DNA of 46,329 nt, taken from positions 1-46,329 of the IMG/VR virus record IMGVR_UViG_3300029947_000012. One strand, 5' to 3'. Positions within the stretch are counted from its first letter, which is position 1. The number at the start of each line of letters is the position of its first letter. The translations under genes were made by a program, and so were the position numbers. Source of the stretch: a virus. The notes under the pieces are model-generated. The model saw only the letters and a list, made by a program, of their open reading frames with translations, had not been told where the DNA came from and made no database searches. Below, one piece after another: positions 3,435 to 39,298 of the stretch.

Positions 3435-3439
3435 TCGAT

Positions 3440-3526
3440 GCGAGAAGGGGTCTAGAATTGCTCCGCGGGGTTCGGACGTAGGATTTATCCTCCCCATGCT
3501 CCTCTCGATTTTAGACCCCTTCTCGC
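3440..3526. other. Long inverted repeat (15-bp perfect arms GCGAGAAGGGGTCTA / TAGACCCCTTCTCGC, 57-nt spacer)
   Basis: Read directly from the sequence. It lies in the 145-nt gap after the SSB-like gene. A second hairpin GTTTCCG-AAA-CGGAAAC is at 3531..3547. Confidence 0.8.
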
Positions 3527-3579
3527 GCGGGTTTCCGAAACGGAAACAACCACAACCGAAAACAAGGAGAAAAAAGGCA

Positions 3580-3699
3580 ATGCTGACCATAAAAATACGC
3601 GTGCAGAAAATACTGGACGCGACCCCGGTAGACGCGCTCGTGGCGTCGCTCACGGTCGAAGAGCGCAAGGAACTCGCCCGCAGACTGCTCGGGCTTTAG
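3580..3699 (+). CDS. Hypothetical small protein (39 aa)
   Basis: An AAGGAG RBS lies upstream of the ATG at 3580. Confidence 0.4.
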   Translation: MLTIKIRVQKILDATPVDALVASLTVEERKELARRLLGL

Positions 3700-3717
3700 C
3701 ACGGAAGGAGACAGGCA

Positions 3718-5032: not shown

Positions 5033-5254
5033 ATGGGAAAGAGAGACTTTGTTTTCGTCATGCCTACCCGCTCCGTCGTCTGCATTTTTTGCGGACGGAC
5101 GTTCGAGACGAGATTCCCCAATCAGAAGTGCTGCGGGGACGAGGCATGCAAGAAGGCTCAGGCGGCGGAGGCGTACGCCTGCGCAAAAAGGCGAAAGGAA
5201 CTCTACAGGAAGGCGAAGGAAAGGAGGGAACGCCATGACGAAGGAACAGTATGA
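5033..5254 (+). CDS. Small zinc-ribbon protein directly upstream of the large terminase
   Basis: AAGGAG lies 8 nt upstream of the ATG at 5033. Cysteine pairs CxxC ... CCxxxxC are present. The gene overlaps the terL start. Confidence 0.55.
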   Translation: MGKRDFVFVMPTRSVVCIFCGRTFETRFPNQKCCGDEACKKAQAAEAYACAKRRKELYRKAKERRERHDEGTV

Positions 5255-6788
5255 CACCCTTCACGCCGCCCCGCTGGACGGCCTCGCGCAGATCTACGCG
5301 GGCGTCTGGCGCGACAACTCCCCCGCGCTCGTGCGGGAGTTCATCCTGAACGACCGCTTCTTTCTCCTCACGCAGGTGTTGGACGTCGCCCCGGCGTGGC
5401 ATCCGTGGGTGCTCGCCCGGTGCCGCGAGGTCGAAGCCGACCCCGACGAGCACCTCGACCTCTGGAGCCGCGGCCACTTCAAATCCACCATCATAACCTA
5501 CGCCGGGGTGGCGCAGTATATCCTCGCCAACCCCGAGAAGACGGTCTGCATCATGTCCTACAAGGCCGGCGCGGCCGAAGCTTTCGCCTCGCAGATCAAG
5601 ACCGCCTTCGAGAAAAACGACATCCTCGCCAAGTGCTTTCCGGACGTCCTCTGGACCGACCGCCCCGACCGGCGCGGCGACCAGTGGACCGTCTCGGACT
5701 TCACCGTCCGGCGAAAGACGAACCGCAAGGAGGCCTCGGTCTCCACCTCGGGACTTGTCACGGGCATGCGCACGGGCGGCCACTACGACCTCCTCGTCTA
5801 CGACGACACCGTCACCCCCGAGTCCGTCACAACCCCCGAGCAGATACGCAAGACCACCGACGCCTGGTCGATGTCCCTCAACCTCGGCACCCTCGACGGC
5901 ACGCGACACTGGTATATCGGCACGCGCTACGCCCTCTACGACACCTACTACGAGATGCTCAAGACGGGCACCATCACGGAAAGGCGGCACGTCTGCATCG
6001 ACAAGGACGGCAAGCCCGTCCTCCTCCCGCAAGCCGAATTCGACAAGAAGAAAGCCGAAATGACCTCCAAGGACTGGGCCTCGCAGATGATGCAGACCCC
6101 GGTCGGAGACGGAGAACTCCTCATGAAAGAAGAATGGATACACGCCTACCGGCGACTGCCGGAAATCCCGATAAACTACTACATCCTCGCCGACACCGCG
6201 CAGAAGCAGACGAACGCCTCCGACTACACCGTCATGTGGGTCGTGGGGCTCGGGGCGGACCGGCGATACTACTGGGCCGACCTCGTCCGCGACAAACTCA
6301 CCCAGTCCCAGCGGTGCGCCAAACTCTTCGAACTCGTGGAGAAGTGGCGTCCCGTGACGGTGTTCTACGAGGAAAACGCCGCCCCGGACGACCCCGCCTA
6401 CATCCGCGACGAGATGGCGCGGCGCGGGCATTTCGACCTGAAGCCCTTCCGCCAGAAGTCCAACTCCGGCCCGAAGGCCCAGCGCATCGAGACGCTCGAG
6501 CCCCTCTACCGCGCCGGGCTCATGTGGCTCCCCGAAGCCCTCCGCTACCGCCAGTACGACGGCTCGTGGCGCGACCTCGTGCAGGACTTCCTACGCGATG
6601 AATTCCTTTCCTATCCGCAGGTCGTGCACGACGACATGCTCGACGCGCAAGCCTCCATGGGCAACGCGGACGTGAAGCCGTTCATGGAATTCCCGACCTT
6701 CAAGACCGCCCCGCGCTTCGCCGCCCCCGAACAGGCGCGGCTGGACGCGCTCGCCGCGCGGACGGACGACGGCCTCTTTGCGAGGTGA
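5235..6788 (+). CDS. terL: Terminase large subunit
   Basis: Motifs seen: Walker A-like WSRGHFKST, Walker B LLVYDD, and nuclease acidic motifs ILADTA and HDDMLDA. AAGGAGG RBS. The track ORF start at 5049 is an off-frame-looking extension. Confidence 0.85.
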   Translation: MTKEQYDTLHAAPLDGLAQIYAGVWRDNSPALVREFILNDRFFLLTQVLDVAPAWHPWVLARCREVEADPDEHLDLWSRGHFKSTIITYAGVAQYILANPEKTVCIMSYKAGAAEAFASQIKTAFEKNDILAKCFPDVLWTDRPDRRGDQWTVSDFTVRRKTNRKEASVSTSGLVTGMRTGGHYDLLVYDDTVTPESVTTPEQIRKTTDAWSMSLNLGTLDGTRHWYIGTRYALYDTYYEMLKTGTITERRHVCIDKDGKPVLLPQAEFDKKKAEMTSKDWASQMMQTPVGDGELLMKEEWIHAYRRLPEIPINYYILADTAQKQTNASDYTVMWVVGLGADRRYYWADLVRDKLTQSQRCAKLFELVEKWRPVTVFYEENAAPDDPAYIRDEMARRGHFDLKPFRQKSNSGPKAQRIETLEPLYRAGLMWLPEALRYRQYDGSWRDLVQDFLRDEFLSYPQVVHDDMLDAQASMGNADVKPFMEFPTFKTAPRFAAPEQARLDALAARTDDGLFAR

Positions 6789-7265: not shown

Positions 7266-9008
7266 ATGGACTGGGCGCTCATCCGCAAGCACTGCGAACG
7301 CAAGGCGAAGGAACTCTTCAACGACTTCGACACGAAGCGCAAGAGCATCCTCGCCGAGGTCGCGCGCGAATTCTACCCCGCCGGGGTGGCGGGACTCACG
7401 AAAAGCGTGGAGAACCTCGCAGACGAGAGCGCCTACGACGAAAAGAACCGCTTCCTCACCACGAAGCCCATGGACTGCCTCCGCAAGGGCGCGGCGGGAT
7501 TCCACGGCAACCTCACCTCCCCCGCGCGCCGCTGGTTCCATCTCCGCACCCGCGGCGGCGGCGCCTCCTCGATCGACCAGGATCGCGCCCTCGACAAACT
7601 CACCGAAGCCACGGAGTGGACCTTCTCATTCGGCGGCGTCTACCCCCAACTCTACAAACTCTACGAGCACTGCCTCTGCTTCGGCTTCGGCTGCATGCTC
7701 GTCTCGCGCGACCGCGAACGCATCGTCCGGGCGCAGACGTTGCGCGTGGGCACCTACGCCCTCGATGTCGGCGAAGACGGCAAGGTCTGCCGCGTCGTGC
7801 GACGCTTCTCCTGGACGGCCGACAAAATCATCTCCGAATACGGCGAGGAAGCGACCCCCGAGTGCGTCAAGAACGCCGCCCGGTGCGGCAAGGGCAACAT
7901 GCGCTGGACGATCTACAACATCGTCGAGCCCAACCTCACCGGCCCCCTGAAAGCCTACGACCCCATCTCGAAGGAACTCAACCTCGACGACAGCCTCGTC
8001 TACCGCTCAATCTACTGGCTCGAAAGCCCCGGCTCTTCCGACCGCGCCGGCATCCTCGAGACGGCCGGCTTCACCGTGAAGCCCATCGTCGCCCCCCGCA
8101 TGGACTACGAACTCGGCGACGTCTACGGGCGCGGCAGGGGCCTGGACGGGCTCGACCTCGCCCGCGGCATCCAGTCCTTCCAGTACGACATCCTGAAACT
8201 CTCCGGCCTGCGCGCCCAGCCCCCCGTCGTCGCCGCCTCCGAATTCAAGGATACGGGACTGCGCCTCGGCCGCGGGCAAGTCAACTACGCCCGCATGGGC
8301 GAACAGAGACAGGCCATGGTCGCCCCCATCTTCGCCTCCCCGCCCGATTCCTCCGAGACCCGCGCGGACAGGCAGGAGGCGGAAATGCAACTCGCCGACC
8401 TCTTCTTCAATACCGCCTTTGCCACCATCGACGCGCTGAAAAACCAGACCGGCGTCAAGACGGCGACCGAAATCGACGCGCTCGTGCGGGAAAACATGGA
8501 GCGTCTCAACCCGGTCGTGACCAATTTCGACAACGAACTCCTCGACCCCCTCGTGAACGCCATCGTCCACTACACCCTTTCGGACGAGGCGAATTTCAGG
8601 GAAGGCGGCCTCCTCGCCGACGTCGACCTCGCCTCCATCGGCGGCGAGACGGAAGTTGAGTACGTCTCCCAAATTCACCTCGCCGCCCGGCAGTCCCAGA
8701 TGTCCTCCGTCTCCACCTTCCTCCAGTTCGCGGGCGGCTTCGCGCAGGCGAAACCCGAAGCCCTCGACCTCGTCGATACGGACGGCACCATCCGGTGCTA
8801 CGCCAAGATGCTGGGTGTCCCGACCGACTGCCTCGCCAAGGAGGACGACATCCTCGCCATCCGCGCCAAGCGACAGTCCCTCGAGAACGCCGCGCGTCAG
8901 CAGCAGGCGCTCGCTTCCCTCGGCGACGTCGCCAAACTCGGCGCCATCCCGACGGACGAAGGACACGCGGGCGGGCTCATCGCCAAAGGATTGGGGGCCG
9001 GACAATGA
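7266..9008 (+). CDS. Portal (head-to-tail connector) protein
   Basis: 580 aa, lying after the terminase and before scaffold and capsid. The N-terminal region resembles T7 gp8-type connectors (call from memory). Confidence 0.75.
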   Translation: MDWALIRKHCERKAKELFNDFDTKRKSILAEVAREFYPAGVAGLTKSVENLADESAYDEKNRFLTTKPMDCLRKGAAGFHGNLTSPARRWFHLRTRGGGASSIDQDRALDKLTEATEWTFSFGGVYPQLYKLYEHCLCFGFGCMLVSRDRERIVRAQTLRVGTYALDVGEDGKVCRVVRRFSWTADKIISEYGEEATPECVKNAARCGKGNMRWTIYNIVEPNLTGPLKAYDPISKELNLDDSLVYRSIYWLESPGSSDRAGILETAGFTVKPIVAPRMDYELGDVYGRGRGLDGLDLARGIQSFQYDILKLSGLRAQPPVVAASEFKDTGLRLGRGQVNYARMGEQRQAMVAPIFASPPDSSETRADRQEAEMQLADLFFNTAFATIDALKNQTGVKTATEIDALVRENMERLNPVVTNFDNELLDPLVNAIVHYTLSDEANFREGGLLADVDLASIGGETEVEYVSQIHLAARQSQMSSVSTFLQFAGGFAQAKPEALDLVDTDGTIRCYAKMLGVPTDCLAKEDDILAIRAKRQSLENAARQQQALASLGDVAKLGAIPTDEGHAGGLIAKGLGAGQ

Positions 9009-10106: not shown

Positions 10107-11180
10107 ATGACAGTAAACGGAACTCGCGCACTGACGTACGCCGACCTCCTGAAAGGTCTCGATCCGAAGGGCAACTTCGCGCATCGCGTCGTCGACATGT
10201 GCGTCCGCGCAAACGAAATGCTCGACGACATCACCGTCATCGAGGCCAACAACGGCACGTCGCTCGAAACGACGATCCGCACGGGCATCCCCAAGCCGGT
10301 CTGGACGACCTACTACGGCGGCATCCCGTCCAACAAGGCGTCCAAGGCCCGCGCGAAGGCGACCTGCGGCCGCATGGGCACGAAGATCCTTATCGACAAG
10401 GAACTCTACGACACCGCCGCGGGCAAGTCCAAGGAAGCGGCCAACGCCCTCCTCGCCGACGAAATCATGTCCGCCCAGAATGGCATGCGCCTCGAGATGG
10501 GCTCCACCCTCATCTACGGGCTCCTCGACGACAACCCGCTCGCCTTCAACGGCCTCTTCAAGCACTATACGTCCTATTCGACGGGCGAGGAAGGCGACGA
10601 AAATGCGGCGCACTACGTTCTCGACGCGTTCGGCAAGGGCGGCGGCGCGAACAAGGCCTCCGAGGACAAACTCGGCTCCATCGCGCTCGTGGGCTGGTCG
10701 CCGAACACCATCACCTGCTTCCACCCGGAGGGCGCCGCGACGGGCGGCATCGAAATCCGCGAGAAGTTCATGGACAACGTCCACGACCCGGACCGCGGCG
10801 GCGACGCCACCTACGCGGCCTACGTGCAGTACATCTACTGGACGCTGGGTCTTGCCGTGCGCGACCCGCGCTACGCCGGCCGCATCGCCAACATCCAGCG
10901 CGACGACATCCTCAACGGCACGGACAAGGGCGCGTCCTACATCGAACTCATCGACCGCCTCTCCATGCGCGTCTATGACGACCAGGGCGTCAAGCAGGCG
11001 TGGTACATGGACAAGGGCGTGTGGGAAAGCGTCTGCACGCTCTTCTCGCGCATGACCCGCGCCAACGCCATCTCCTTCCAGAACGTGGAGGGCCGCAAGG
11101 AGCGCAAACTCTTCGGCATCCCCGTGCGCCTGCAGGACGCGATGCGCGTCAACGAGGAGAAGGTTCCGGCCTTCGCCTGA
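10107..11180 (+). CDS. Major capsid protein
   Basis: 357 aa, called from its position after the scaffold gene. It is followed by a stable stem-loop. Confidence 0.75.
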   Translation: MTVNGTRALTYADLLKGLDPKGNFAHRVVDMCVRANEMLDDITVIEANNGTSLETTIRTGIPKPVWTTYYGGIPSNKASKARAKATCGRMGTKILIDKELYDTAAGKSKEAANALLADEIMSAQNGMRLEMGSTLIYGLLDDNPLAFNGLFKHYTSYSTGEEGDENAAHYVLDAFGKGGGANKASEDKLGSIALVGWSPNTITCFHPEGAATGGIEIREKFMDNVHDPDRGGDATYAAYVQYIYWTLGLAVRDPRYAGRIANIQRDDILNGTDKGASYIELIDRLSMRVYDDQGVKQAWYMDKGVWESVCTLFSRMTRANAISFQNVEGRKERKLFGIPVRLQDAMRVNEEKVPAFA

Positions 11181-26815: not shown

Positions 26816-29800
26816 ATGGCAAACATGGAAGAATTCGAAGAGAACGGCAACGAAACCACGGCCAAGGCGTCCAACGGACTCTCCTATCAGGGCTTGTCGC
26901 GCCTCGCGTCCGGAGCCCCCGCACCCGAGACCCCCGCCGCGGGAGACACCCCCGCGACCCCCAAGCGCGACGCCTATCTGGACTTCCTCGACAACCTGCA
27001 GGCGAAACAGAAGTACGCCCGCGGCGTGGAACTCGACCGCGACCTCTACGAATTCTACAACTCCGGGGATGCCAAGGACGAAGAAAAGGCGTTCGCCTTC
27101 TACGACAAGTGGACGCAAGACCGCTTTGGCGTGGGCACGACGCGCGGCGACATCTGGACGCGCGACCGCAAGGGCTTCGACAACGCGCAGCAGTACGGGA
27201 ACGCCCTCTTCGGGCTCTCCCAGCGCGGCTACGCCGCCATCGCCTCGCCCGAATACAAGGCGTGGGAGAAGGCCTGCGCCGCGGGCGACCGCGCCGAAAT
27301 GATGCGACTGGCGGGGATAGACCCCACCGTGACGGAACGCGAGGGAGAAGCCCCCGCCTACACGGTAGGCGCGGCGGGCGCGATCGTCGACAACCGCCCC
27401 CTCGTCTCCCGGCAGAAGACGGACGAGGAGATAGACGAGGAACTGGACGCCCACAACGCGAAGATGAAAAGCGAGAACTGGCTGGGCGCATTCCGCGCCA
27501 TGGACGCGGCGTACCATTTCACGGACGAGGAGAAGGAACTCGTCCGGGCCTCGCTCCGCTCGGGCGACGGTCTCCCGAAGGAATACGAGGACACCTACGC
27601 CGGCATCATCCGCGGCGACGTCTCGCGCGCCGCCGTCCTCAACTATCTCATCGACAACGGCCGTCATGTGGAAAGCCGGTGGTTGCGCGACAACGTCGTC
27701 CTCCCCTTCACATCGGTGGTGAAATCCTTCTGGCAGGGCGCGAAAGACACCTTCGAGGAAGCCTCCCTCTCCCGCGCCTACACTCGGGCGAACTACGAGA
27801 CGGTGCGCTCCTCCTCAGATTCGGCGAAATTCTACTGGAACGACGAGGAAAGAGCCGAGTACAAGCGGCTCCTCGATTCCGGCGAACTCGCCCGCGAAGC
27901 CGAAGCGCGGCACTACGCAAACGCCGATCTCGCCGAAATCGCCAAGGAGCGCGTGGACGCCCAATGCGCCCGCCGTCTCGCCGACGAAGCCAAGCCGCGC
28001 GAACAGTACCTGCGCGAACGCCGCGAACGCCTGTATCTCGAAGACGCCCTTTCCCCCAAGGCGGCGGGCGACTATGGCTGGTTCTCCCGCTCCGTCTCGG
28101 GCGCGATTTCCACCCTCCCCTACATGGTCATGTCCGCCACCCCGGCGGGCTTCGCGTGGAATGTCGCCGCGCAATTCCAGGACGTCCGCAACGACCTCAT
28201 TCTCCGGGGTGAAGACCCCGACAAAGCCCTGTTCTTCCAGGCGTTCTCCGCGACGGCGTGGGCCGCCATAGAGAAAGTCCAGTGGGGCGGGCTTTTCGGC
28301 AAGGAACTCTCCAACCTCGCCAAGAAGCGCCTTCTCGGCAACGTCCTCCAGAAGGCGTGGGGCGCGGGCAAACTGCAGGGCATCGGCACGCTCCTCAAGG
28401 AAGGCGGCAAGGACGTCCTCAAGAAGACCGTGAAGGAATCGCTCGAGGAAGGCATGCAGGGCGGGCTCGAGGGATGGACGCGCGAATACCTCCGCTCCGC
28501 CGACCTCTCCAAGGCGATGGACGCCGCCGTCGGGCAGGCCGCCTCCGACTTCGTCGACTCCCTCGGCGCCATGGGGCTCGTCTCCCTCGCCTCCACGGGC
28601 GCGAAATTCTCCGGCGCCCGGCACGCCGCCGTCGGCATCGACGACCTCGTCGAGGTGGCGCAGGCGAAAATCCACGCGCTCAACACCTACAAGAACACCC
28701 TCTTCGACCCCGAGAAAGGCGCGCCGGACGCCCAACTGAACAAGCAGACCGCCGCCTTCGCCGCGGACTGCCAGTCCATCATGGACGCCCACGTCAAGGA
28801 CGGCTCGGGCGCAATCGCCGCCATGGACGAAATCGCGGCGAAATACGCGCTCGCCCCGAAGGAATCGCAGGCCATCGCCGAGTGGCTCGACCTCCGCCAG
28901 AACGCCATCGGCATGGCCAAGTGGGCGAATTCGGACGCGGCCGCAAACTTCGCCGCCCGCGAACTCGGTGCGCTCCCGATCGGCAACGACACGACATTTG
29001 ACGTGGAGGGCCTCTTCAGGCTCGTGAACCCGAACGCCCGCGTGGAGAGGATGCAGGTCGCCGATACGGCCGCCCCCGCCCCCGAGACGGTGCGACATGT
29101 GAACGCGGACGAGGTCGACGCCCTCGAAGCCCAACTCGCCGGCATGAAAGCCCGTCTCGACGAAATGCCCCAGAACGCCAAGAAGCGGAAAGCCGAACGC
29201 CAGTACGCCGAACGCGCCAAGCGTCTCGCCCGCCTGAAAAACCGCCTCGCCGAGGAGGAGCAGACCGCCCACGACGCCGTCCCCACGAAGGACGTCGTCC
29301 GCGTCACCATCCCCATGGGCGACAAGGGCGAAACGAAGAGCTTCGTGGTCGAAACCTCCTCTGCCGCCCCCGACATCGAATCGCGGGGCTTTGCCGCCTC
29401 CGTCTCCGAAGCCATGCGCGGCGCAATCGGCGAGGACGGCGTCGTGGACGGCGGCACGCTCACGGATGAGCAGTTCGCCGCCCTCCCCATCGCGCAAAAG
29501 GCGAATGTCGCCGTCACCGAAAATCAGTACCTCGCCATGTCCGAGGAGGACAAAGCCGCCTACCTCGAGATGAACAGCCTCAAGGAAGGCGGCGACTTCC
29601 GCATCCTGGACGGCGAAGGCAAGGTCGTATACAATGCGGATGCGCTCGTCACGCTCAAGCGTGCGCTCAACGCCCCCTCCCCCTTCACGCGCGTCGGCGG
29701 CAACTCCACCCTCGCGCACGAGTATTCCCACGCCATCTCCCGCTTTGCCCGCGACCTCGGGCTTGTCTCCGGGGAAGACGCCAAGACCATGTCCGCCCTC

Positions 29801-32800
29801 TTCGGCGCGCCCCGCAAGGGCGTGGACGAACTCTGGGACGAGGAAGCCGTGGGCGACGGGTTCGTGGACTTCCTCCGCGGCAAGTACGACTTCCGCCGCC
29901 TGACGGAAGAGGAACGCCGCGCGGCCATGGGCTTCTTCGAGCGCATCTGGGACGCCATCAAATCCGTCTTCCGCCTGAACGGCATGTCCGCCCCCGTGAC
30001 GCAACACGACCGCAACCGGCGCGAACAGGCGCGCGAGACGGCGTTTGAAGCCATCCAGCGCGGCGACTTCGCGGGACTCTCCCAGTATGCGGGCATCAAA
30101 TTCGACGATGACGCGTCCGCCCCCGAGAAGAAGGAGCCGGCAAAGACGGAAGAAAAGCCGCAGGAAGCGAAGGCGGAGGAGAAGAAGACGTCCGAGGAAA
30201 CGCCGCCCCCGCAGAAGGAAGCGAAGCCCGAGGAGATGTCCGAGGAGAAGCCCGCCCGAGAAACCGACGCGTCCGTGGACGCCGACCGCCTGCAGGAGGG
30301 GCTGGACAAAGTCTCCTCCTCCCCGCGCGAAGCCGAAGCGTCCACCCCGCGCCGCGTCGACCTCAAGCGCACCATCTTCACCCCCGACTACTCCATGAAG
30401 GTGGAGACGGAAACCCTGTGGGCCCCCCTCGCCGACCTCGTCGAATCCACCGACGACCGCACCGTGCAGATGCGCGACCGCTCCCGCGTCGCCACCGACA
30501 TGCAGGTGCTGGAGAAAACCCGCAAAGGCACGTTCCAGCCCCTCGCGCTCTTCCCCGGCACGAAGTCCGACGACGGCGCGCCCATCGTCGGCGGCGGTCT
30601 CCGCATCGTCTCCGGGCACGGCCGCAAGCGCATGCTTGAGACACTCGCCCGCGAAGGCCGCTACAGCGAATACCTGGACGCCATAAACGAAGAATGCCGC
30701 AAGCAGGGCATTCCCTCGTCTCCCGCCGGGATGAAGAACCCTGTCCTCGTTTCCCGCATCACGGGTGGGCTCAAGAACCACGCCGATCTCGCCCGCTTCG
30801 CCGAACGCTCAAACCGTTGGGGCGGACTCGAGCGCTCCGGCGCGGAATACGCCGAATCGGACGCCCGCGCCATCACCCCCGCCCTGATGCGCCTCTACGC
30901 GCCGGACGCGAACGGCAATCTCCTCGCCGCCTCCAACCGCGAATTCATGGGCGCGTTCCTCGACGCCGTGGGCGCGACGGGGCTTACGAACGCCGACGGC
31001 ACCCCCACCCCGGAAGCCGCCCTGCGCGTCCGACGCGCCCTCATGACCGCCCTCTTCGGCGACGACGAACGCGTCCGCTCCATGGTGCGCAACCTCCTCG
31101 AAAAGGGAGACGAACTCTCCACGGGCACGCTCCTCAACGCCCTCATGAAGTCCGCCGGACGCCTCCTCGCCCTCAAGGACGGACGCGCCTCCTACGACAT
31201 CGTCCCGGACGTGCGCGAAGCCGCCCTGCAGTATATCGCCTGGCGCGTGGAAGCCCGCCGCAACCCGCGGCTCACCCTCTCCGACCACCTCGCGCAGACC
31301 GACCTCTTCTCCGCGTCCGCGACCCCCGTACAGCAGGCTCTCGCCCGCCTCCTCGAGAACGGACGCTTCGGCGCGGCCATAGACCGCTACGCCGAACTCG
31401 CCGCCAAGCAGGCCGTGGACGCGCAGACCGCGCTCCCGGGCTTCGCGCCCGCAACCCCGCTCCAACTCCTCTCTCGCGCCGAGCGCGACACGACCCCGAA
31501 GAACCCGGACGGCTCCCCCGTCGCACCCTACGTCACCCCCGACCCCGAATCGGAGCAGGCAAAAACCCCCGTGCAGACGCCGCCCGCCGTGCAGGAAGCC
31601 CCCAAGCCCGCCCCCATCCTCGAGAAAAAGACGGAAAATGCGGCTGTGGAAGCCGCGAAGGCCATTCTCGCGCCCAAGGCGAAAGAGACGCCGTTCGTGC
31701 CCGTCCCCTTCGTGCGCGGCACGGCGACCTTGCCTCAGCCCGGTGCGCCCGCCATCGTCAACCCAAAGACCGGCAAGCCCCTCAAGACGGGCGCCTACAA
31801 CCTCCTCCGCGGCGCGTACGAGACGGCCGAACGCCCCACGCCCTCCGCCCAGGACAAGAGTGGACGCGGACTCGGAATCTTCAATCCGCCCAAGGCGACG
31901 GACGCCAAAGGCCGATATTGGGGCGACATCTTCCCGCATTTCCAAGGCAACAAGACCGAGATGGCCGACCGCGTCTCGCAGGCCCTCCGCGTCAACATGA
32001 CGCGACAGGAGCGCGACCACTACAAGACCGTCGTGGACTATTTCGGCGGCGGCGGGTGCTGGGGACTCTACAACGCGCTCACCAACTTCGATAACGCCGA
32101 CCGGCTCGTCGTGAATGAATACGACCCCGACCGTCTCGCCAAAATCCGCCTCCTCCACGAGGTCGACGGCAAGGTGGCGGACATTGCCGAGAGCCTCCTC
32201 TTCCGCGAAGGCAACATGGAACGCCTGGTCGAGGATATGCGTGGAAGCAGAAAGACCCCGCTGACGAATTCGCCCAACGTCCTCGCCTCGCACGCCGAGT
32301 CGCTATTCTGGGAGGAAGTCAAGGACGCGAACGACCGCGCGGCCTTCATGGCGTTCCTCGATTGCGCCCACACCATGCTCTCCTCCTCCGACCAAGGCAA
32401 GTCCGACCCGGCAAGCCGCACCCGCGCCTACTACGACATCGGCGTCCGCAAAGCGCTGGACGCCGTCCGGGCGGACGGCAAGCGGGCGAAGGAAGCCGCC
32501 GACGCCTTCAAGGCACGCGGGGGAACGATAGACTACCGCGCGGGCGACGCCGCCAATTGGCCCGACGCCCCGCACGGGGACGAGGTCGTCGCCGTCTTCG
32601 ACCCGCCCTACTACCGCACGATGGGCTACGACGGCTCGTCCGTCCCCCTCGACGCCGCCGGACGCGGCTGGGACTACAAGACAACCGCCGCCACCCTCCG
32701 CCGCCTGGTTGACGCGGGCGACGCGATAGTGTATACTGATGAGGCGTGGTGGTTGACGGGAGGATACTCGGCGGACGAAGGCGCGGCGGAACAGTTGTCG

Positions 32801-35800
32801 CTGTTCGACGACATCAAGCCCGTGTTCGCCGAGGAGAACGACCTCCTCCTGGGCATCATCAACAACTTCGACCACTTTGACGTCGCCGGCGCGGTCGACG
32901 GGCGCCAAGAGACACTGGGAGTGCAGCATGGACACAAAACTGACGAAAGAACAGAAAGCGGCGCGGGTGGCGATTCTGCTGAGCCTGCGCGAACCGCTGA
33001 CGGACGGGGAACTGGATCTCATACAGGGGCCGTCCAGCCTGTGGACGCAGGCGATGCGGGACAAAGTCGGCCCACTCGTGCGCCTGGCGGAAGCGGAGGA
33101 CGCGCGGGCGGAGAACCCACCGCCGGAGAACGCGCCCTCGCAAGAGCCGTAATCGCCGACGACATCGCCCGACACTCCGTCTCCCGCCTCTACACGGGTA
33201 GCGCGGCGGACTACGACCAGCCCTCCCTCCGCGCCGTCGGTACGGGAGTGGGAAGGCAGGCATTCGGCTGGGGATTGTACGCGAGCAAAAATCGCGCCGT
33301 CGCGGAGAACCACGCCACGCGTGAACAGAACAGAAAATCCATGCCGGGCGAAGCCGGTGCAAACGCGCATGTCTACGAGCAGACGTGGTTCACCGACCGT
33401 CCCGAAGGCGACGAAAGCCGCCTCCTCGAGTGGGACGAGGTTATATCCGCGGAAATCCTCGCGCGCATCGAGAAGCAGTCGGACGCCGAAGGCATAGGAC
33501 AGGAGGTGCGCGACGCGCTGCGCTTCGGGAACGGATATGAAGGTGACAACGTCTATGACGACCTGCGCGATCAAGTCTTTGCGGGCGACGCGAAAGCGAC
33601 CTCGGAGTTTCTCGCCCGCGCGGGCATCGACGGCATGAAATACCCCGCCGCCCCACGCGGCTGGAACTACATCTCGTTCCGCGACGACAACATGCGCATC
33701 GATCACCACTGGGTAGACGGCGAGCAACGCTACTCCGTCCAGCGCGTGACGCCAGAGGAAGACGCCGCCTACATGGACGCCGTGCGCCGCGGCGACACGG
33801 AGACGGCCCAGCGCATGGTGCGCGAGGCCGCGAAACGCGCCATGCCGAATACGCAGGTCGTCGGGGAGGACGGACTGCCCCGCATCGTCTACCACGCCAC
33901 GGACGAGGACTTTACGCGATTCGACCGCACGAAACTCGGCAAGGCGACCGAAGCCAACAGCGGCAACGTGGACATGGCTAAAATCGGCTTCTGGTTCAAC
34001 GACAACGACCTGTCCGGGAAGGTCGCGACGAACCCCGCGAAGACGAAAGCGGTGTTTCTCGACCTGGAAAATCCGGCACGCGCCACCTTTGACGAACTCT
34101 GGGACGGAGCCCGTGACGAGAACGCGGACGGCTACATCGTGGAGGATACGGAACTCGGCGGCATGTCCTATGTCGCGCTCGACCCCGCGCAAATCAAGTC
34201 CGCGGAGCCTGTGACCTACGACGACGCCGGGCGCATCATCCCGCTCTCCGAACGGTTCGACCCCGCCGACCCCGACATCCGCCACTCCGTCCGCCGCGAC
34301 CCGTGGCATTCCGTCCAATACGGATACGCGCAGGCGGCCGGATACAGCGAGGACGCGCATCTCTCCCCGGAAGATAAGCAGGCGACCGACTATGCTCTCG
34401 ACGCGCTGATCGAGAAACACCATTCCGGCTCGGAGCGCTTCGGCAATGACGTCATGCTCGCCAATATGTACCCGCCAGACTGGGCGGAACGCCCTGTGGT
34501 CAAGTTCGCCCTGCAGTTCGTTGGCAACGACGGGGCTCTGCGGGATATTCGGAAAGCCTTCTTCCTTCGCAACGGGTGGCGGACGAACGACAAAGAAGGA
34601 TGGCTGCGATACAATGCCCCCGCAAAAGCCGCAGTACTTGAAAAGGACTACTCGCCCAAGGAACTGCAGGAGAAGAAGAATCGCTTCCAGACGCTTCTCG
34701 ATGCTGAGAGGGAAGTGGCGAAGAAGCGCAGTGCACTTCAAAAGAAACTGGGGTACCCCGCGTACAAGGACAGCGAGGAGTGGTCGCGCCTGTCTGCCGA
34801 AGAGCAACGCCTGAAGGCGGAACGATTGTCCCCAGACAAGAGGCACGCGGATGCGGAAGCAGACTATCAAAAGACGAAAGCCGAATGGGAACGGTCCAAG
34901 GACGCTAAATATGAGGAGTGGCGGAACGAGCGCGTCGCCCGAGGGAACGCAATGCTCGACGAAGTGGCAAGGGAGCACGGCAAGAAGACGCTGGGCGAAT
35001 TCATCGCCGAAGGCAGAACGCAGCCCGAACGCCACAGCGTCCGCCGCGGACGCCGCGAGGACGCCGTGCCCGCGCTCGACATAGCGACCGGCTACCTCGC
35101 CCGCCGCCTCCTCGGCGGCAAGACGATAACCCCGCAGCAGGCGAAGGACATCCTCGGCAATCTCGGATTTGTCCAGGAAAACCCCGCCGAAGTCCTCCGC
35201 CGGGCGCAATCCGCCGCCGACACCGTGCGCGAACGCGTCAAGGACGCCGGGGAACGCGCGGATTCCGAACTCTACCGCTACCTCTCGCAAGCCTCCATGA
35301 CGGGTCGCATGCAGGAAGCCATGGATCGCGCCATCACGGGCGCGGCGCAGGCCGCAGACCCCGAGATCGGCCGCCGCCTCGAGCGCGCAATCTCCTCCAA
35401 ACGCACGCGCGACCTCGAAGCGGCCAACGGCTTCACCGCCGCCGAAATGATGGCCGAACTCCCCATCTCGCTGACGGACGCGTTCCTCTCGGTCGCCGAA
35501 TTCGAGCGCACACCCGAGGAGAAAGCGCGACTGGAAGCCGAACGCGCCAACCGCGCGGAGGAGGAGAAGACGGACGGCAAGACGGACGAGGAACTCCTCG
35601 CCGAGGTTGACGACGGCGAAGTCACCGACCCGACGCCCGAGCAGGTCGCCGCATTCGACGAACTGATGGGACGCGCCCGCTACGCCGAAGACGCCCGCAA
35701 GCGCAAGGAGGCGATAGACATCGCCGCCCGCGCGAAGGCGAAGGCGGAGGCAGGCGAGGAAGCCCAGTCCGAGGACGCCGGGAGCGGAGAGGATGAGGAC

Positions 35801-38674
35801 GCCATCGGCGGCATTCCCCTCGCCCGCATTCGCCGCATCGCGCCCGTCTTCGAGGACCAGAACCTGTTTGCCGCGTTTCTGATCGAATGGACGGCGCAGA
35901 AGATCGTCCAGAAGCACCCCGAACTGACCAACAACCGCGACCTGTGGAAATCCCCCGTCGCCATCCGCGAACTGAAGCAGACCGCGACGCACATTCTGCG
36001 CCGCCTCGCCGCGGACATCCTCGGAAGTCCCACGGGTAGCCACGCGCGGAACTTCGCCGACCACATCATCAACGAACTGGAATCGGACGCGACCTGCCGC
36101 ACCTACAAAGCCGTGCGCCGCAAAATCGCCTATGTCTACGACGCCATCCACACGGACGGCCTGCGCCAGTCCCGCAAGGAATTGATGCACCGCCTGACGG
36201 ACGGGTGGCGCGAGAAAGGACCGGACGGCAAGTACATCGTCCACCCGGGCATCCGGCAGTTGGTTGGTGCGAAGGGACGGTTCAGCGCGACCACCGAGGA
36301 AGGCAAGCGCAAGATTGACGGCCGCACCGAAATGTACGGCCGCACCCTCCTGCGCGTCCTGGCCATGTCGGACGAGGAACTGCAGGCCCGCGACGCCGAG
36401 CTGCGCGAGATAACCGACATCAACCCCACGGCGACAGGCGACGCGGGCGCGAAAGCGACCGAAGAGAAGGTGCGCGAAGCCGCCGCCGAACGCGCCATCA
36501 TCGCCGCGTACGGTGGGCTCGCCCGCCGCCTGCCGGGCGAAATCCGCGACGCGACCGAGCGTATCCTCGCCGATCTGCAAGGAAAGCGGCAGGCGTTCGA
36601 GGCCCGCCGCGAAGCCGAGAAGGCGGAGAACGACAAGGTCAAGGCCGCGCTCGTCGAGGCTATGTCCGATACACCCGCCCCCAGGAGGACGAAGCCGAAG
36701 GGCCGCGCGGAGAAGTACATCGAATCGTTTGTGGGCAACATCGGTCTCGAAATGCGCAATCTGATACGCTACTGCAAGGACGGCAAGAAACGGGACGCCG
36801 CGCAGGACGTCATTACGGACACCGAGGCCGCCCTGTCCGAGGCGACCGGCAAGTACCGCGCGACCAAGATGGGGCACGAAATCGCCATCAACGCCGCGCT
36901 GAAAGCCTGCTACGGAAACGCCGCGGACGGCGTCCGGCACCTGACCGCCGAGCCCGTGCCGGAGGAAGTTGCCCGTGCCGTCTTCGGACAGGACGCCGCC
37001 ATGACCCCGACCTACGGCAACCTGTTGCAACTCTATGCGTCAATCGTCCAGGCGGACTACAAGGCAAACGCGGAAAAGCACGGACGCCTCGCGCAACTGC
37101 CCATGATTCGCGCCGCGCTGACGGACGCCGACATGCGCTTCTACGCGTTCGCGCTGGGCTGGTACCGCGACAATCGCGCCGCCCTGTCGGACGCAGTGGA
37201 AGCCGTGACCGGCGTTCCGGTCGTATCTCCCGACCCGCTGTACGTGCCTGTCCGCGTCGCCCGCCCCGTGGAGGGATTGTCTGCGGACGTCGTCGCGTGG
37301 TCCCCCATTCCGCGCGCCCTGTCCCTCCGCGTCCCGCACGGCTGGGACTTTGACGAACACGCCAACTTCTTCCGCCTACTGGACGAGCAGGCGGAAATGC
37401 ACGCACAGACGGTCGCCTACGCCAAACTGGGCATCCGCCTGCGCGATACATGGGCGTCGCGCGAGGTTCAGGACGCCGCCCGTCGCAATGTCGGGTCGGA
37501 CGACATGATGGCCGTCACAGGGCACATGCGCGACGTCCTCGCGCAGGACGCCGCCCGCCCGGAGGATACGCGCATCCTGTCGGCAATCAACTACGCACGC
37601 GCATGGATTGCCCGCTTCGCGATCAGCGGCAACTTGTCGTCCGCAATGTCCCAGCCCGCATCCATCCCGGTGTGGGCCAACATCATGCTGGGCCACGAGG
37701 CGGTCGGATTCCGCCGCCTAGCCCGGTACATGCTGCACGTGGACGCGGACGCCGTGCGCGACCTCGTCCAGTCCGACGGCTACCGCGCCCGCTATTTGAT
37801 GGGCTGGACCGAGGACGTGCAAAACGCCATCCTGCACCCGTCCAAATCGCGCATCATGTCCACGGTCGAAACGGCCTACGACAAAGGCATGGCGCTGTCC
37901 AAGGTCGCCGACAAGGGCGCGTCCTTGTGGATTGCGCAGGGCTTCTATCGCGACGCCCGCGACATGTTCATCCGGCGCGGGGATACGGACGCGGACGCCA
38001 AACGCAAGGCCATCGCCCTGACATGGGCGGCCGTCGAGGCCAGTCAGCAGACAGGGCGGTCGGAATACCTTAACCGCCTACAGCGTGGCAATGGCGCGGT
38101 GTCCAAAATCCTGTTCCAATTCCGGACGGCCCAGTTGCTGTCCAACAACTACCTGATACAGGCCGTGCGCGATGTGCGTGCCGGGGGCGACCCCGCCGCC
38201 AAAGGACGCCTGTTGCGGGCCGTGGCGATTAACACCATTATCGTCCCGGCGTATCTGACGCTCGTTCGCGCGGCATGGGACGCGATTCTGGGCGACCCCC
38301 CGCCGGAAACCGAAGACGTGGAAGTCCCCGAGCAGGTGCGCGAGTTCCTCTGGAACGCGATTGACAACAACACCGCCCCGCTGTTCTTCGTCTCGGCGGT
38401 TGCCTCGGCCGGCGCGAAACCCCTGCTGGGGCTGGACACCTACGGCGCGTCCAGTGGCATGCCCGCCGTGGACAGCACCATCCGCATCGGACAGCACGCG
38501 GGCAGGGCATTGGCGGACGCGTCCCGCTACATCGTCAACCTGTGCACGGCGGACGACATCGCGGACGAAGTTACGGCCGAAAAACTGATAGCGGACGTGC
38601 TGCGTTTGGGACGCGACATCGCCGCGCCTGTACGGCACGCCGCGCGGGCATACGACAACTACATGGGGGATTGA
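26816..38674 (+). CDS. Giant (3,952-codon) polyvalent internal virion/ejection protein
   Basis: One uninterrupted ORF with coding bias almost throughout. It contains HExxH, ParB-like, Dam-like MTase and ART-like motifs plus a hydrophobic C-terminal core. The in-frame ATG at 26825 has better RBS spacing than the one at 26816. Confidence 0.85.
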   Translation: MANMEEFEENGNETTAKASNGLSYQGLSRLASGAPAPETPAAGDTPATPKRDAYLDFLDNLQAKQKYARGVELDRDLYEFYNSGDAKDEEKAFAFYDKWTQDRFGVGTTRGDIWTRDRKGFDNAQQYGNALFGLSQRGYAAIASPEYKAWEKACAAGDRAEMMRLAGIDPTVTEREGEAPAYTVGAAGAIVDNRPLVSRQKTDEEIDEELDAHNAKMKSENWLGAFRAMDAAYHFTDEEKELVRASLRSGDGLPKEYEDTYAGIIRGDVSRAAVLNYLIDNGRHVESRWLRDNVVLPFTSVVKSFWQGAKDTFEEASLSRAYTRANYETVRSSSDSAKFYWNDEERAEYKRLLDSGELAREAEARHYANADLAEIAKERVDAQCARRLADEAKPREQYLRERRERLYLEDALSPKAAGDYGWFSRSVSGAISTLPYMVMSATPAGFAWNVAAQFQDVRNDLILRGEDPDKALFFQAFSATAWAAIEKVQWGGLFGKELSNLAKKRLLGNVLQKAWGAGKLQGIGTLLKEGGKDVLKKTVKESLEEGMQGGLEGWTREYLRSADLSKAMDAAVGQAASDFVDSLGAMGLVSLASTGAKFSGARHAAVGIDDLVEVAQAKIHALNTYKNTLFDPEKGAPDAQLNKQTAAFAADCQSIMDAHVKDGSGAIAAMDEIAAKYALAPKESQAIAEWLDLRQNAIGMAKWANSDAAANFAARELGALPIGNDTTFDVEGLFRLVNPNARVERMQVADTAAPAPETVRHVNADEVDALEAQLAGMKARLDEMPQNAKKRKAERQYAERAKRLARLKNRLAEEEQTAHDAVPTKDVVRVTIPMGDKGETKSFVVETSSAAPDIESRGFAASVSEAMRGAIGEDGVVDGGTLTDEQFAALPIAQKANVAVTENQYLAMSEEDKAAYLEMNSLKEGGDFRILDGEGKVVYNADALVTLKRALNAPSPFTRVGGNSTLAHEYSHAISRFARDLGLVSGEDAKTMSALFGAPRKGVDELWDEEAVGDGFVDFLRGKYDFRRLTEEERRAAMGFFERIWDAIKSVFRLNGMSAPVTQHDRNRREQARETAFEAIQRGDFAGLSQYAGIKFDDDASAPEKKEPAKTEEKPQEAKAEEKKTSEETPPPQKEAKPEEMSEEKPARETDASVDADRLQEGLDKVSSSPREAEASTPRRVDLKRTIFTPDYSMKVETETLWAPLADLVESTDDRTVQMRDRSRVATDMQVLEKTRKGTFQPLALFPGTKSDDGAPIVGGGLRIVSGHGRKRMLETLAREGRYSEYLDAINEECRKQGIPSSPAGMKNPVLVSRITGGLKNHADLARFAERSNRWGGLERSGAEYAESDARAITPALMRLYAPDANGNLLAASNREFMGAFLDAVGATGLTNADGTPTPEAALRVRRALMTALFGDDERVRSMVRNLLEKGDELSTGTLLNALMKSAGRLLALKDGRASYDIVPDVREAALQYIAWRVEARRNPRLTLSDHLAQTDLFSASATPVQQALARLLENGRFGAAIDRYAELAAKQAVDAQTALPGFAPATPLQLLSRAERDTTPKNPDGSPVAPYVTPDPESEQAKTPVQTPPAVQEAPKPAPILEKKTENAAVEAAKAILAPKAKETPFVPVPFVRGTATLPQPGAPAIVNPKTGKPLKTGAYNLLRGAYETAERPTPSAQDKSGRGLGIFNPPKATDAKGRYWGDIFPHFQGNKTEMADRVSQALRVNMTRQERDHYKTVVDYFGGGGCWGLYNALTNFDNADRLVVNEYDPDRLAKIRLLHEVDGKVADIAESLLFREGNMERLVEDMRGSRKTPLTNSPNVLASHAESLFWEEVKDANDRAAFMAFLDCAHTMLSSSDQGKSDPASRTRAYYDIGVRKALDAVRADGKRAKEAADAFKARGGTIDYRAGDAANWPDAPHGDEVVAVFDPPYYRTMGYDGSSVPLDAAGRGWDYKTTAATLRRLVDAGDAIVYTDEAWWLTGGYSADEGAAEQLSLFDDIKPVFAEENDLLLGIINNFDHFDVAGAVDGRQETLGVQHGHKTDERTESGAGGDSAEPARTADGRGTGSHTGAVQPVDAGDAGQSRPTRAPGGSGGRAGGEPTAGERALARAVIADDIARHSVSRLYTGSAADYDQPSLRAVGTGVGRQAFGWGLYASKNRAVAENHATREQNRKSMPGEAGANAHVYEQTWFTDRPEGDESRLLEWDEVISAEILARIEKQSDAEGIGQEVRDALRFGNGYEGDNVYDDLRDQVFAGDAKATSEFLARAGIDGMKYPAAPRGWNYISFRDDNMRIDHHWVDGEQRYSVQRVTPEEDAAYMDAVRRGDTETAQRMVREAAKRAMPNTQVVGEDGLPRIVYHATDEDFTRFDRTKLGKATEANSGNVDMAKIGFWFNDNDLSGKVATNPAKTKAVFLDLENPARATFDELWDGARDENADGYIVEDTELGGMSYVALDPAQIKSAEPVTYDDAGRIIPLSERFDPADPDIRHSVRRDPWHSVQYGYAQAAGYSEDAHLSPEDKQATDYALDALIEKHHSGSERFGNDVMLANMYPPDWAERPVVKFALQFVGNDGALRDIRKAFFLRNGWRTNDKEGWLRYNAPAKAAVLEKDYSPKELQEKKNRFQTLLDAEREVAKKRSALQKKLGYPAYKDSEEWSRLSAEEQRLKAERLSPDKRHADAEADYQKTKAEWERSKDAKYEEWRNERVARGNAMLDEVAREHGKKTLGEFIAEGRTQPERHSVRRGRREDAVPALDIATGYLARRLLGGKTITPQQAKDILGNLGFVQENPAEVLRRAQSAADTVRERVKDAGERADSELYRYLSQASMTGRMQEAMDRAITGAAQAADPEIGRRLERAISSKRTRDLEAANGFTAAEMMAELPISLTDAFLSVAEFERTPEEKARLEAERANRAEEEKTDGKTDEELLAEVDDGEVTDPTPEQVAAFDELMGRARYAEDARKRKEAIDIAARAKAKAEAGEEAQSEDAGSGEDEDAIGGIPLARIRRIAPVFEDQNLFAAFLIEWTAQKIVQKHPELTNNRDLWKSPVAIRELKQTATHILRRLAADILGSPTGSHARNFADHIINELESDATCRTYKAVRRKIAYVYDAIHTDGLRQSRKELMHRLTDGWREKGPDGKYIVHPGIRQLVGAKGRFSATTEEGKRKIDGRTEMYGRTLLRVLAMSDEELQARDAELREITDINPTATGDAGAKATEEKVREAAAERAIIAAYGGLARRLPGEIRDATERILADLQGKRQAFEARREAEKAENDKVKAALVEAMSDTPAPRRTKPKGRAEKYIESFVGNIGLEMRNLIRYCKDGKKRDAAQDVITDTEAALSEATGKYRATKMGHEIAINAALKACYGNAADGVRHLTAEPVPEEVARAVFGQDAAMTPTYGNLLQLYASIVQADYKANAEKHGRLAQLPMIRAALTDADMRFYAFALGWYRDNRAALSDAVEAVTGVPVVSPDPLYVPVRVARPVEGLSADVVAWSPIPRALSLRVPHGWDFDEHANFFRLLDEQAEMHAQTVAYAKLGIRLRDTWASREVQDAARRNVGSDDMMAVTGHMRDVLAQDAARPEDTRILSAINYARAWIARFAISGNLSSAMSQPASIPVWANIMLGHEAVGFRRLARYMLHVDADAVRDLVQSDGYRARYLMGWTEDVQNAILHPSKSRIMSTVETAYDKGMALSKVADKGASLWIAQGFYRDARDMFIRRGDTDADAKRKAIALTWAAVEASQQTGRSEYLNRLQRGNGAVSKILFQFRTAQLLSNNYLIQAVRDVRAGGDPAAKGRLLRAVAINTIIVPAYLTLVRAAWDAILGDPPPETEDVEVPEQVREFLWNAIDNNTAPLFFVSAVASAGAKPLLGLDTYGASSGMPAVDSTIRIGQHAGRALADASRYIVNLCTADDIADEVTAEKLIADVLRLGRDIAAPVRHAARAYDNYMGD
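29717..29731 (+). other. HExxH zincin motif (HEYSH) within the giant protein
   Basis: The context is TLAHEYSHAISRF, with acidic WDEEAV downstream. Confidence 0.5.
30350..31260 (+). other. ParB/sulfiredoxin-like domain region of the giant protein
   Basis: APIVGGGLRIVSGHGRKRMLETL (GHGRKR at 30614..30631) fits the ParB-type PiV...G.gR motif. Confidence 0.5.
31870..32926 (+). other. Dam-like (D12 class) N6-adenine DNA methyltransferase domain of the giant protein
   Basis: Motifs seen: FGGGG (32042..32056), NEYDP and DPPY (32600..32611). The ending VDGRQETLGV resembles stand-alone Dam C-termini. Confidence 0.7.
32709..32737 (+). promoter_or_regulatory. Internal sigma70-like promoter candidate TTGACG-17-TATACT inside the giant gene
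   Basis: The hexamers and spacer length are identical to the early promoter at 39270..39298. TATACT is rare in this high-GC genome. Confidence 0.5.
32928..33152 (+). CDS. Nested 74-codon ORF in the +1 frame of the giant gene (hypothetical small protein)
   Basis: The ATG lies 6 nt after GGGAG. By hand count, GC3 is about 80% in this frame against about 45% in the host frame. The TAA stop falls exactly where host-frame codon bias resumes. Confidence 0.4.
   Translation: MDTKLTKEQKAARVAILLSLREPLTDGELDLIQGPSSLWTQAMRDKVGPLVRLAEAEDARAENPPPENAPSQEP
33746..34297 (+). other. ADP-ribosyltransferase-like (ART-PolyVal-type) domain of the giant protein
   Basis: The motif order RIVYHAT..F..F, IGFWF, DGYIVED and DPAQIKSAEP...DPDIRHSV matches the pattern I recall for ART domains of polyvalent proteins. 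Confidence 0.45.
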
Positions 38675-39269: not shown

Positions 39270-39298
39270 TTGACGCAGTGCTAAAAATATGATATACT
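39270..39298 (+). promoter_or_regulatory. Early promoter candidate TTGACG-17-TATACT with an extended -10 (TGA) and upstream A-tracts
   Basis: Near-consensus hexamers. It shares the 15-nt block ATATGATATACTATA with 42602..42616. Confidence 0.7.

Follow-up and report, generated by a model that had tools for sequence, protein, structure and literature searches.

What does a giant phage gene encode where its coding signal abruptly leaves the reading frame? The question is raised by IMG/VR virus record IMGVR_UViG_3300029947_000012 (46,329 nt, analysed at its full length and called the window below), temperate phage DNA by its gene content, in which the gene for a 3,952-residue polyvalent virion protein holds, directly after a methyltransferase-like domain, a complete 74-codon open reading frame (ORF) in its +1 frame. 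An original prediction, made from the letters of the window, had noticed this ORF and offered three readings: (i) a functional overprinted gene expressed independently of the late operon, (ii) a fossil cassette of a methyltransferase and a small gene, captured into the polyvalent protein by stop-codon loss, or (iii) a shifted-frame, truncated isoform. We consider it likely that positions 32928..33152 are dual-coding and specify both a self-starting embedded gene and, in the frame of the host gene, an interdomain linker; a putative internal promoter, a probable origin and a proposed partner role complete this reading. Judged by comparison among relatives, the embedded gene is real, conserved and previously unannotated. 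The features at the overlap are as follows.

26816..38674, + strand: host gene, encoding a polyvalent virion protein of 3,952 amino acids; last large gene of the late operon
31916..32926, + strand: adenine methyltransferase-like domain, modestly supported as Dam-like (D12-class), ending ...FDVAGAVDGRQETLGVQ
32917-32921, + strand: predicted Shine-Dalgarno (SD) sequence GGGAG, 6 nt before the ATG, within the host Leu-Gly-Val codons CTG GGA GTG
32927..33151, + strand: host-frame read-out of the overlap, amino acids 2038-2112, the linker from the methyltransferase-like domain to the next domain
32928..33152, + strand: embedded gene in the +1 frame of the host ORF, 74 amino acids, complete and fully nested (MDTKLTKEQKAARVAILLSLREPLTDGELDLIQGPSSLWTQAMRDKVGPLVRLAEAEDARAENPPPENAPSQEP)

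A coding signal in the +1 frame

The embedded ORF opens with ATG at 32928 and closes with TAA at 33150-33152, and between these positions GC content at third codon positions (GC3) is 0.46 in the host frame vs 0.79 in the +1 frame, where 59 of the 74 codons end in G or C and 43 of them in G. GC at codon positions 1/2/3 of the +1 frame is 0.74/0.46/0.79, a pattern by which this frame looks like a normal coding frame; the corresponding values for the giant ORF overall are 0.68/0.47/0.84. A 50-codon scan along the whole giant ORF finds host GC3 below 0.6 solely at 32861..33160. The frame switch, the limits of the ORF, the GGGAG with its 6-nt gap and the codon counts had all been put forward in the original prediction, and every one of them is reproduced; the scan adds that the patch is unique in the giant gene.

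The 75-residue host-frame product of the patch (G17 A13 R8 T7 D5 E5 S5 P5) is low-complexity, which bears out the description of this stretch as a linker. Taken on its own, the window could hold two open frames by chance: under synonymous resampling, the host frame stays open with P=0.64 and the +1 frame with P=0.95. Since openness in the window is unsurprising, we draw the significance of the overlap from its composition and from comparison with relatives.

Conservation among relatives

Relatives were gathered through the methyltransferase domain alone, a sampling blind to the +1 ORF. IMG/VR yielded one near-identical contig, plus two phages whose domains are 50% and 43% identical; further loci comprise 19 from metagenomes and 6 from GTDB genomes (loci carry L numbers below). 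When a hidden Markov model (HMM) of the small peptide was run against every stop-to-stop segment of these loci, it matched directly after the domain in the window and in L004, L005, L011, L012, L013, L017, L018, L020, L021, L022, L023, L025/26, L028, L029 and L030; L019, L032 and L038 were added to the carriers by inspection, and L027 was discarded as not being a true relative. In about 19 of 21 distinct lineages, the same junction is occupied by a homologous ORF with an ATG start. Relative to the domain, this ORF is without exception in the +1 frame, and in every HMM-matched locus the host frame continues beyond the stop of the small ORF. An alignment of homologues, which had been suggested along with the original prediction, finds the +1 ORF conserved in these lineages and the host-frame peptide poorly conserved in the overlap.

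The carriers range from 46 to 69% GC and come from marine, gut and rumen samples, with metagenome-assembled genomes (MAGs) assigned to several phyla. Members of a marine low-GC clade have a host gene of only about 1,000 codons, situated between head and virion-structural genes, and share a conserved host C-terminal tail of about 68 amino acids past the overlap. The near-identical contig (L001/L002; IMGVR_UViG_3300012662_000004, 46,807 bp) starts and ends inside the embedded-gene region, its ends overlapping there, and its small protein differs from that of the window by an Asp-to-Asn and a Val-to-Ile change. In L014, L015 and L016 (about 3235-3950), the homologue, reading …HEVLGVHNSQ…, runs on in the host frame as ordinary sequence. 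L033 is a contig from a Campylobacter MAG of 35% GC (positions 1090-1650), in which the domain is cut by an upstream stop and a Gly-rich stretch follows the small-protein homologue. L038 (5700-5830) is a Logan prophage contig beside Mur ligase genes with a one-base frame break in its methyltransferase region; because of this break, the host gene was called in pieces and the small ORF was reported as a 69-aa gene of its own. In GenBank phages and plasmids, blastn and tblastn searches with the small protein and three variants of the methyltransferase domain returned nothing.

Start signals of the embedded gene

All 18 loci compared begin the small ORF with ATG and carry an SD-like purine run 3-8 nt before it. 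The host codon that holds the start is always NAT (CAT, AAT, TAT or GAT), the host residue varying among His, Asn, Tyr and Asp while the ATG stays fixed. Seven high-GC loci encode the SD in the Leu-Gly codons of a host E-T-L-G motif as (C/T)T(G/A) GGA; in L004 and L012, where the ATG lies further downstream, the Leu-Gly codons are back to the preferred CTC/CTG GGC and a new ACGGAGA precedes the displaced ATG. Comparison across these loci shows the start codon and the predicted SD to be under nucleotide-level selection. A +1-frame stop, moreover, lies only 1-3 codons before the ATG in L011, L013, L017, L018, L020, L021, L022, L023 and L025/26, and with such a stop in most lineages the ORF cannot be entered from upstream.

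Selection on the two frames

Of the pairs that are informative on selection, L022 and L023 are the closest. Between these two loci, differences at host codon positions 1/2/3 number 21/16/112 in the 300 codons upstream, 25/8/4 in the overlap and 9/7/26 in the 65 codons downstream (Fisher's test on the phase contrasts, p=5e-13 and p=2e-6), and host amino-acid identity, 0.92 before the overlap, is down to 0.57 within it and rises again beyond it. Over eight pairs of loci, ratios of nonsynonymous to synonymous substitution rates (dN/dS) by the Nei-Gojobori method (NG86) are 0.08-0.8 in the small frame and an apparent 1.2-2.2 in the host frame. The phase switch and these ratios together indicate that the small frame carries the protein information. 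The host and small frames, alone among the frames, are stop-free in all 18 loci, the third sense frame having 3-9 stops in each; antisense coding was rejected, since antisense frames contain stops in many loci. When synonymous codons of the small protein are resampled, the host frame stays open with a probability of only 0.001-0.009 in seven low-GC loci, which argues that both frames are maintained; past the overlap, the host gene goes on to encode a conserved C-terminal tail or additional domains.

How the small gene accommodates its host can be read from its third positions, which are the first positions of host codons. In all loci these are rich in G (0.40-0.68) and poor in T (0.00-0.12), and the depletion of T holds even where the background T3 is about 0.3. 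Host codons starting with G specify Gly, Ala, Asp and Glu, while stop codons are kept out by the scarcity of T, so the composition of the linker is explained. The same enrichment accounts for the leucine codons of the patch, CTG 8 : CTC 2 vs 60 : 223 in late genes: this contrast had been recognized in the original prediction and stands, whereas its attribution to early-gene codon usage does not, because third positions of the small gene are G-enriched and T-depleted in all 18 loci whatever the bias of the genome, and a constraint imposed by the host frame is the better explanation. Comparison of the loci thus shows purifying selection on the small frame and, on the host frame, selection only for openness and a linker-like composition.

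A putative promoter within the methyltransferase coding sequence

An independently expressed gene could have a promoter of its own, and a candidate lies upstream, inside the sequence that encodes the methyltransferase-like domain.

32709-32737, + strand: putative sigma-70-type promoter, with -35 TTGACG at 32709-32714, a 17-nt spacer and -10 TATACT at 32732-32737
32717..32752, + strand: 36-nt conserved block GGCGACGCGATAGTGTATACTGATGAGGCGTGGTGG, containing the -10

The candidate, recovered just as it had been described in the original prediction together with the like pattern at 39270, agrees with the consensus at 10 of 12 positions, and 190 nt separate the end of its -10 from the ATG. Three matches to TTGACN{17,19}TATACT occur in the window (32709+, 39270+ and 40438-) vs 0.02 expected, and the copies at 39270+ and 40438- lie in the regulatory region by the integrase gene. 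TATACT is identical in 10 of 10 high-GC relatives, and it needs a Tyr TAT codon (host usage 5-23%) followed by a Thr ACT codon (2-10%). Among 62 invariant degenerate columns of the domain, only the two codons of the -10 are A/T-ending in all 8 of the high-GC loci scored; next among the outliers come the Asp column that follows the -10, the GGA codon for Gly in the SD and the Asp column inside the -35. This nucleotide-level constraint is real, and its positions coincide with those of the predicted signals for expression. In L030 and L038 the match is perfect, TTGACA-17-TATACT.

The block around the -10 is identical in the window, L004 and L005 bar one synonymous third position (GCG in the window, GCA in L004 and L005), despite amino-acid identities of 43-50% in the domain. 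With TAG in +1 and TGATGA in +2, it closes both alternative frames just upstream of the leader of the embedded gene. No Rfam family matched anywhere in the window; a hammerhead-like CUGAUGAG in the conserved block was dismissed, as Rfam has no match to it and the sequence on either side is unsuitable. The RNA leading from the putative transcription start to the start codon is predicted to fold no better than shuffled sequences (z=0.12).

The small protein and its stand-alone copies

The predicted product is an acidic protein of 74 amino acids (8.1 kDa; isoelectric point 4.7) without Cys and without a signal sequence. Structure prediction on the peptide had been suggested at the outset along with HMM searches; the latter place the peptide in a family spread over about 19 lineages, and the AlphaFold2 (AF2) model has three helices (7-19, 26-32 and 41-62) at a predicted local distance difference test (pLDDT) score of 82.7. 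The family is marked by an invariant Trp in a P-x-x-E-W-P-x-x-L-K motif. A match of one member to PG_1098_N (E=0.005) was treated as noise. A restriction-modification controller (C) protein was also considered, for which the predicted helices (13, 7 and 22 residues) and the 8-residue loop that leads into the third were compared; this identity was rejected on the lack of a Pfam helix-turn-helix (HTH) match in 16 members and of a structural match. An Rz1-like spanin o-subunit was discarded as well, since the peptide has neither Cys nor signal sequence and the host gene encodes a virion polyvalent protein. Expected peptides are VAILLSLR, EPLTDGELDLIQGPSSLWTQAMR, VGPLVR and LAEAEDAR, and the N-terminus should read Met-Asp-Thr-Lys.

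A profile search of 5.8 billion proteins returned 13 small proteins, and an exhaustive HMM search of 1.84 billion representatives gave 28 matches, nearly all of 50-101 amino acids and mostly on short contigs; nested ORFs are not reported by gene callers. Some copies stand alone. P0008 (L034-37) is called as a free-standing gene on bacterial-looking contigs of 39-54 kb, flanked by an HTH-like 220-aa protein and a cpYpsA gene. Between position -26, so that the SD is covered, and a point close to the stop, it shares 83% nucleotide identity with the copy nested in L005; the sequences on either side are unrelated. P0009 also stands alone, in the same pairing with an HTH-like protein.

Several observations concern the surroundings of these copies. 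A conserved protein of 215-233 amino acids with an HTH-like C-terminal half always precedes the stand-alone gene (L034 3063-4596; L042 1168-2162; L043 74-1122). In L034-37, the cpYpsA (PF12694) gene follows it, and L034 has a pair of N6_N4 methyltransferase and NmeDI_C genes 3 kb upstream. P0019 (L039 5001-5477), a stand-alone protein of 158 amino acids, consists of two tandem copies of the small-protein domain and is transcribed divergently from an N6_N4 methyltransferase/ResIII helicase locus.

The methyltransferase-like domain and the giant host gene

Support for the domain that precedes the embedded gene as Dam-like (D12-class) is modest. The order of its motifs, GNK..FGGGG..NEYD..DPPYY, agrees with the D12 class; an hhalign comparison with an E. 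coli Dam sequence gives E=0.008; and the 17 best Foldseek matches in the PDB are all D12 adenine methyltransferases (Dam, DpnM or Mcbe1), the query being a low-confidence model (pLDDT 52) built from a three-sequence alignment, with template-modelling (TM) scores of 0.3-0.4. The domain of the window has no Pfam match at E<=1 and its best hit in a PDB profile search reaches only E=0.08, at the DPPY region; one of 15 relatives of the domain touches PF02086 (E=0.03), and a word-indexed protein search with the domain found two proteins only. The Dam-like assignment in the original prediction thus agrees with motif order, hhalign and Foldseek, while sequence searches of Pfam and the PDB are silent on it.

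Pfam recognizes ddrB-ParB (aa 1205-1315) and ART-PolyVal (aa 2351-2424) in the giant protein. With these domains, a Dam-like domain and a late position after the tail genes, the giant ORF is a polyvalent protein sensu Iyer et al. 2017 (PMC5512222). Tail genes and the following landmarks surround it, the tail, terminase, portal and head genes lying upstream.

5049-6788: terminase
7266-9008: portal-like gene
10107-11180: major head protein
33170..33181, + strand: R-H-S-V, the first copy of an R-[HY]-S-V motif, in the host frame directly past the overlap
33170, 33728, 34280 and 35030: starts of the R-[HY]-S-V copies (aa 2119, 2305, 2489 and 2739), spaced by 185-250 aa
40888-41955, minus strand: integrase

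The R-[HY]-S-V motif occurs four times in the giant protein vs 0.2 expected, at apparent domain boundaries, and also trails the embedded gene in L004, L005, L011, L012, L028, L029, L030 and L038; it may serve the processing of the polyvalent protein or be a signature of the points where its domains start. The sole further dip of host GC3 in the giant gene, to 0.62, is at 34521-34750 (GC1/GC2 0.62/0.35), and this AT-richer patch holds two 9-of-12 promoter-like matches on the + strand.

Alternatives to a functional embedded gene

Could the +1 ORF be something other than a gene in its own right? Were the ribosome to slip to +1 near 32900, a truncated protein of about 2,037 residues with a new 74-residue C-terminus would result, as in the third of the original readings. 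The +1 frame is indeed free of stops over the 17-73 codons that precede the ATG in the window and in some relatives of high GC content, and L033, where the methyltransferase C-terminus runs in frame into the homologous segment, illustrates that a fusion of the two can exist. We nevertheless regard an isoform as very unlikely: the stops 1-3 codons before the ATG bar this route in most lineages, no slippery motif is common to the loci, the ATG is invariant while the host residue varies and the SD moves with it, and a stand-alone gene carries the same SD. Alternatively, the +1 ORF could be an untranslated remnant left after loss of the methyltransferase stop, kept open only through high GC, and the +1 frame is expected to be open in the window given the host protein (P=0.95). 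A fossil of this kind is highly improbable, because ORF, ATG and SD persist down to 46% GC and substitutions fall at third positions of the small frame, with dN/dS as low as 0.08 there vs values above 1 for the host frame, the opposite of what a relic should display. As an account of origin, the second reading, capture of a methyltransferase plus a small gene by stop-codon loss, is plausible; its fossil part falls, as the gene is still under selection. Two compensating indel errors, finally, might have put a real stretch of the giant protein out of frame, and the frameshift of the L038 contig illustrates that such errors occur in these data. Yet the +1 ORF is bounded by stop codons of its own, independent assemblies of the same phage (the IMG/VR contig and ERZ808267) have the same arrangement, and about 19 divergent lineages have the same frame relation, which makes an artefact hardly credible. 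The first reading, a functional overprinted gene, is the one that the evidence upholds: it occurs in about 19 lineages, is under purifying selection, has its own ATG and a co-moving SD, and exists in stand-alone copies.

A rival of a different kind accepts the embedded gene and dispenses with its promoter: the small protein would be translated from the late polycistronic mRNA only, and the block at 32717-32752 would serve otherwise, as a ribosome-pausing cluster of rare codons, as a protein-binding DNA site or as a source of off-frame stops, which it does contain in both alternative frames. We judge this rather unlikely, although several observations weigh against the promoter and other parts of our reading and should be stated together. 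The -35 is TTGAC(N) in 5 of 10 high-GC loci and TGGAT(N) in the other 5; TATACT is kept consistently in the high-GC clade only and not in the low-GC clades; a terminator after the small gene (+ strand, past 33152) was not found; and the conserved A/T-ending codons could have another purpose. As to the proposed function, Pfam and PHROGs have no family match for the small protein and 15 relatives, Foldseek finds nothing at E<1 for its model in the PDB and BFVD, and stand-alone copies have unrelated neighbours, either the HTH-like 220-aa protein and cpYpsA or N6_N4 methyltransferase/ResIII. As to generality, the L014-16 lineage has no nested +1 ORF, the homologue in L033 is in frame with the methyltransferase C-terminus, which could be a fused variant or a decaying copy, and the link of the embedded gene to the methyltransferase domain is partly built into a sampling that went through that domain. 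In favor of the promoter, its hexamers and spacing match those of the two other best promoter sites in the window, both by the integrase; the only two columns that are A/T-ending in 8/8 loci are exactly the -10 hexamer; and two loci hold the perfect version.

A model for expression, origin and function

We posit that the giant gene is read straight through the overlap to yield a flexible, Gly/Ala-rich interdomain linker, and that the small gene is translated from its own ATG at 32928 by way of GGGAG at 32917-32921, with no need of frameshifting. An internal sigma-70-type promoter would give rise to a transcript starting near 32744, allowing the small protein to be made independently of the late operon, for example in a lysogen or in early infection; the protein could also be translated from late mRNA. 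With respect to origin, the small frame is probably the older one, because it is folded and codon-adapted and the D12 domain ends at ..ETLGV; reading of the host gene would later have extended across it, probably after the stop codon of the methyltransferase had disappeared. Embedding could then keep the pair of methyltransferase and small protein together during domain shuffling.

Because its gene is welded to the C-terminal end of a Dam-like domain in otherwise different host proteins, the small protein most likely binds the methyltransferase module as a partner, whether as inhibitor or immunity factor, as chaperone or as modulator. A fuller version would make it the dedicated partner of an ejected Dam-like effector (an inhibitor/immunity protein or a loading/ejection chaperone), nested in the linker of that effector and transcribed in the lysogen from the internal promoter; we offer this version tentatively and think it, taken whole, unlikely. 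If it were true, a lysogen could neutralise methyltransferase effectors of superinfecting relatives, the stand-alone copies in bacteria would be captured versions used against phage, and polyvalent proteins would have in the small gene their first described partner gene and, in their linkers, a general hiding place for accessory genes.

Relation to known systems and significance

Out-of-frame genes inside other genes are familiar from phiX174 and G4 (E in D, B in A, and K) and from the L gene of MS2; they are initiated independently, and both frames are maintained under asymmetric constraint. The genomes concerned are tiny and strongly constrained in size, and what the embedded gene encodes is usually a young and disordered product. 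The present overlap shares the nested position, the independent initiation that we propose, the maintenance of both frames and the asymmetry; it differs in that the embedded product is the folded (as predicted), codon-adapted one and the host read-out is of low complexity. Morons are independently transcribed genes in late operons that sit between genes, usually with a terminator. Like them, the embedded gene is a small accessory gene downstream of a sigma-70-like promoter, here putative, in the late region of a temperate phage; unlike them, it is intragenic, its promoter is itself coding sequence and a terminator was not found. With the toxin/immunity or effector/partner pairs of polymorphic-toxin and polyvalent loci it has in common a partner-sized gene right after an effector domain and strict linkage to one domain across varied architectures. 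The survey of polyvalent proteins (Iyer et al. 2017, PMC5512222) described no immunity or partner gene and no overlapping ORF, and our literature searches found no description of this embedded gene.

By analogy, the closest known system is lambda Rz/Rz1, in which the Rz1 gene lies in the +1 frame within Rz, on DNA that also encodes the flexible linker of Rz (PMC6139136). Spanin genes occur in embedded, overlapped and separated architectures, and a route to embedding by stop-codon loss has been proposed for them (PMC6139136). The resemblance extends to a small +1 gene that is wholly embedded, has its own start and shares its DNA with a flexible linker, to more than one architecture among relatives, and to an embedded partner that gene callers routinely miss. 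The differences are equally plain: the present protein looks cytoplasmic, is acidic and lacks signal peptide, lipobox and Cys, with no relation to two-component spanins in sequence or function; its host is a 3,952-aa ejected/virion polyvalent protein and not a lysis protein; the frame relation is invariably +1; and the coding sequence upstream contains a promoter-like element.

Polyvalent proteins are large and widespread effectors of phages, of which little is understood, and to gene callers each looks like a single ORF. On the comparative evidence assembled here, at least one of their modules hides a second, deeply conserved gene that standard annotation cannot report. The overlap would be a natural example of dual coding in which one frame holds the protein information and its synonymous sites shape a stop-free, Gly/Ala-rich linker in the other. 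It also supplies handles for experiment, namely a new small-protein family, a candidate internal promoter and two point mutations, T32929C and G33043A, predicted to remove the small gene while leaving the host protein unchanged, and it suggests that frame-specific composition scans of giant phage genes can reveal further embedded genes.

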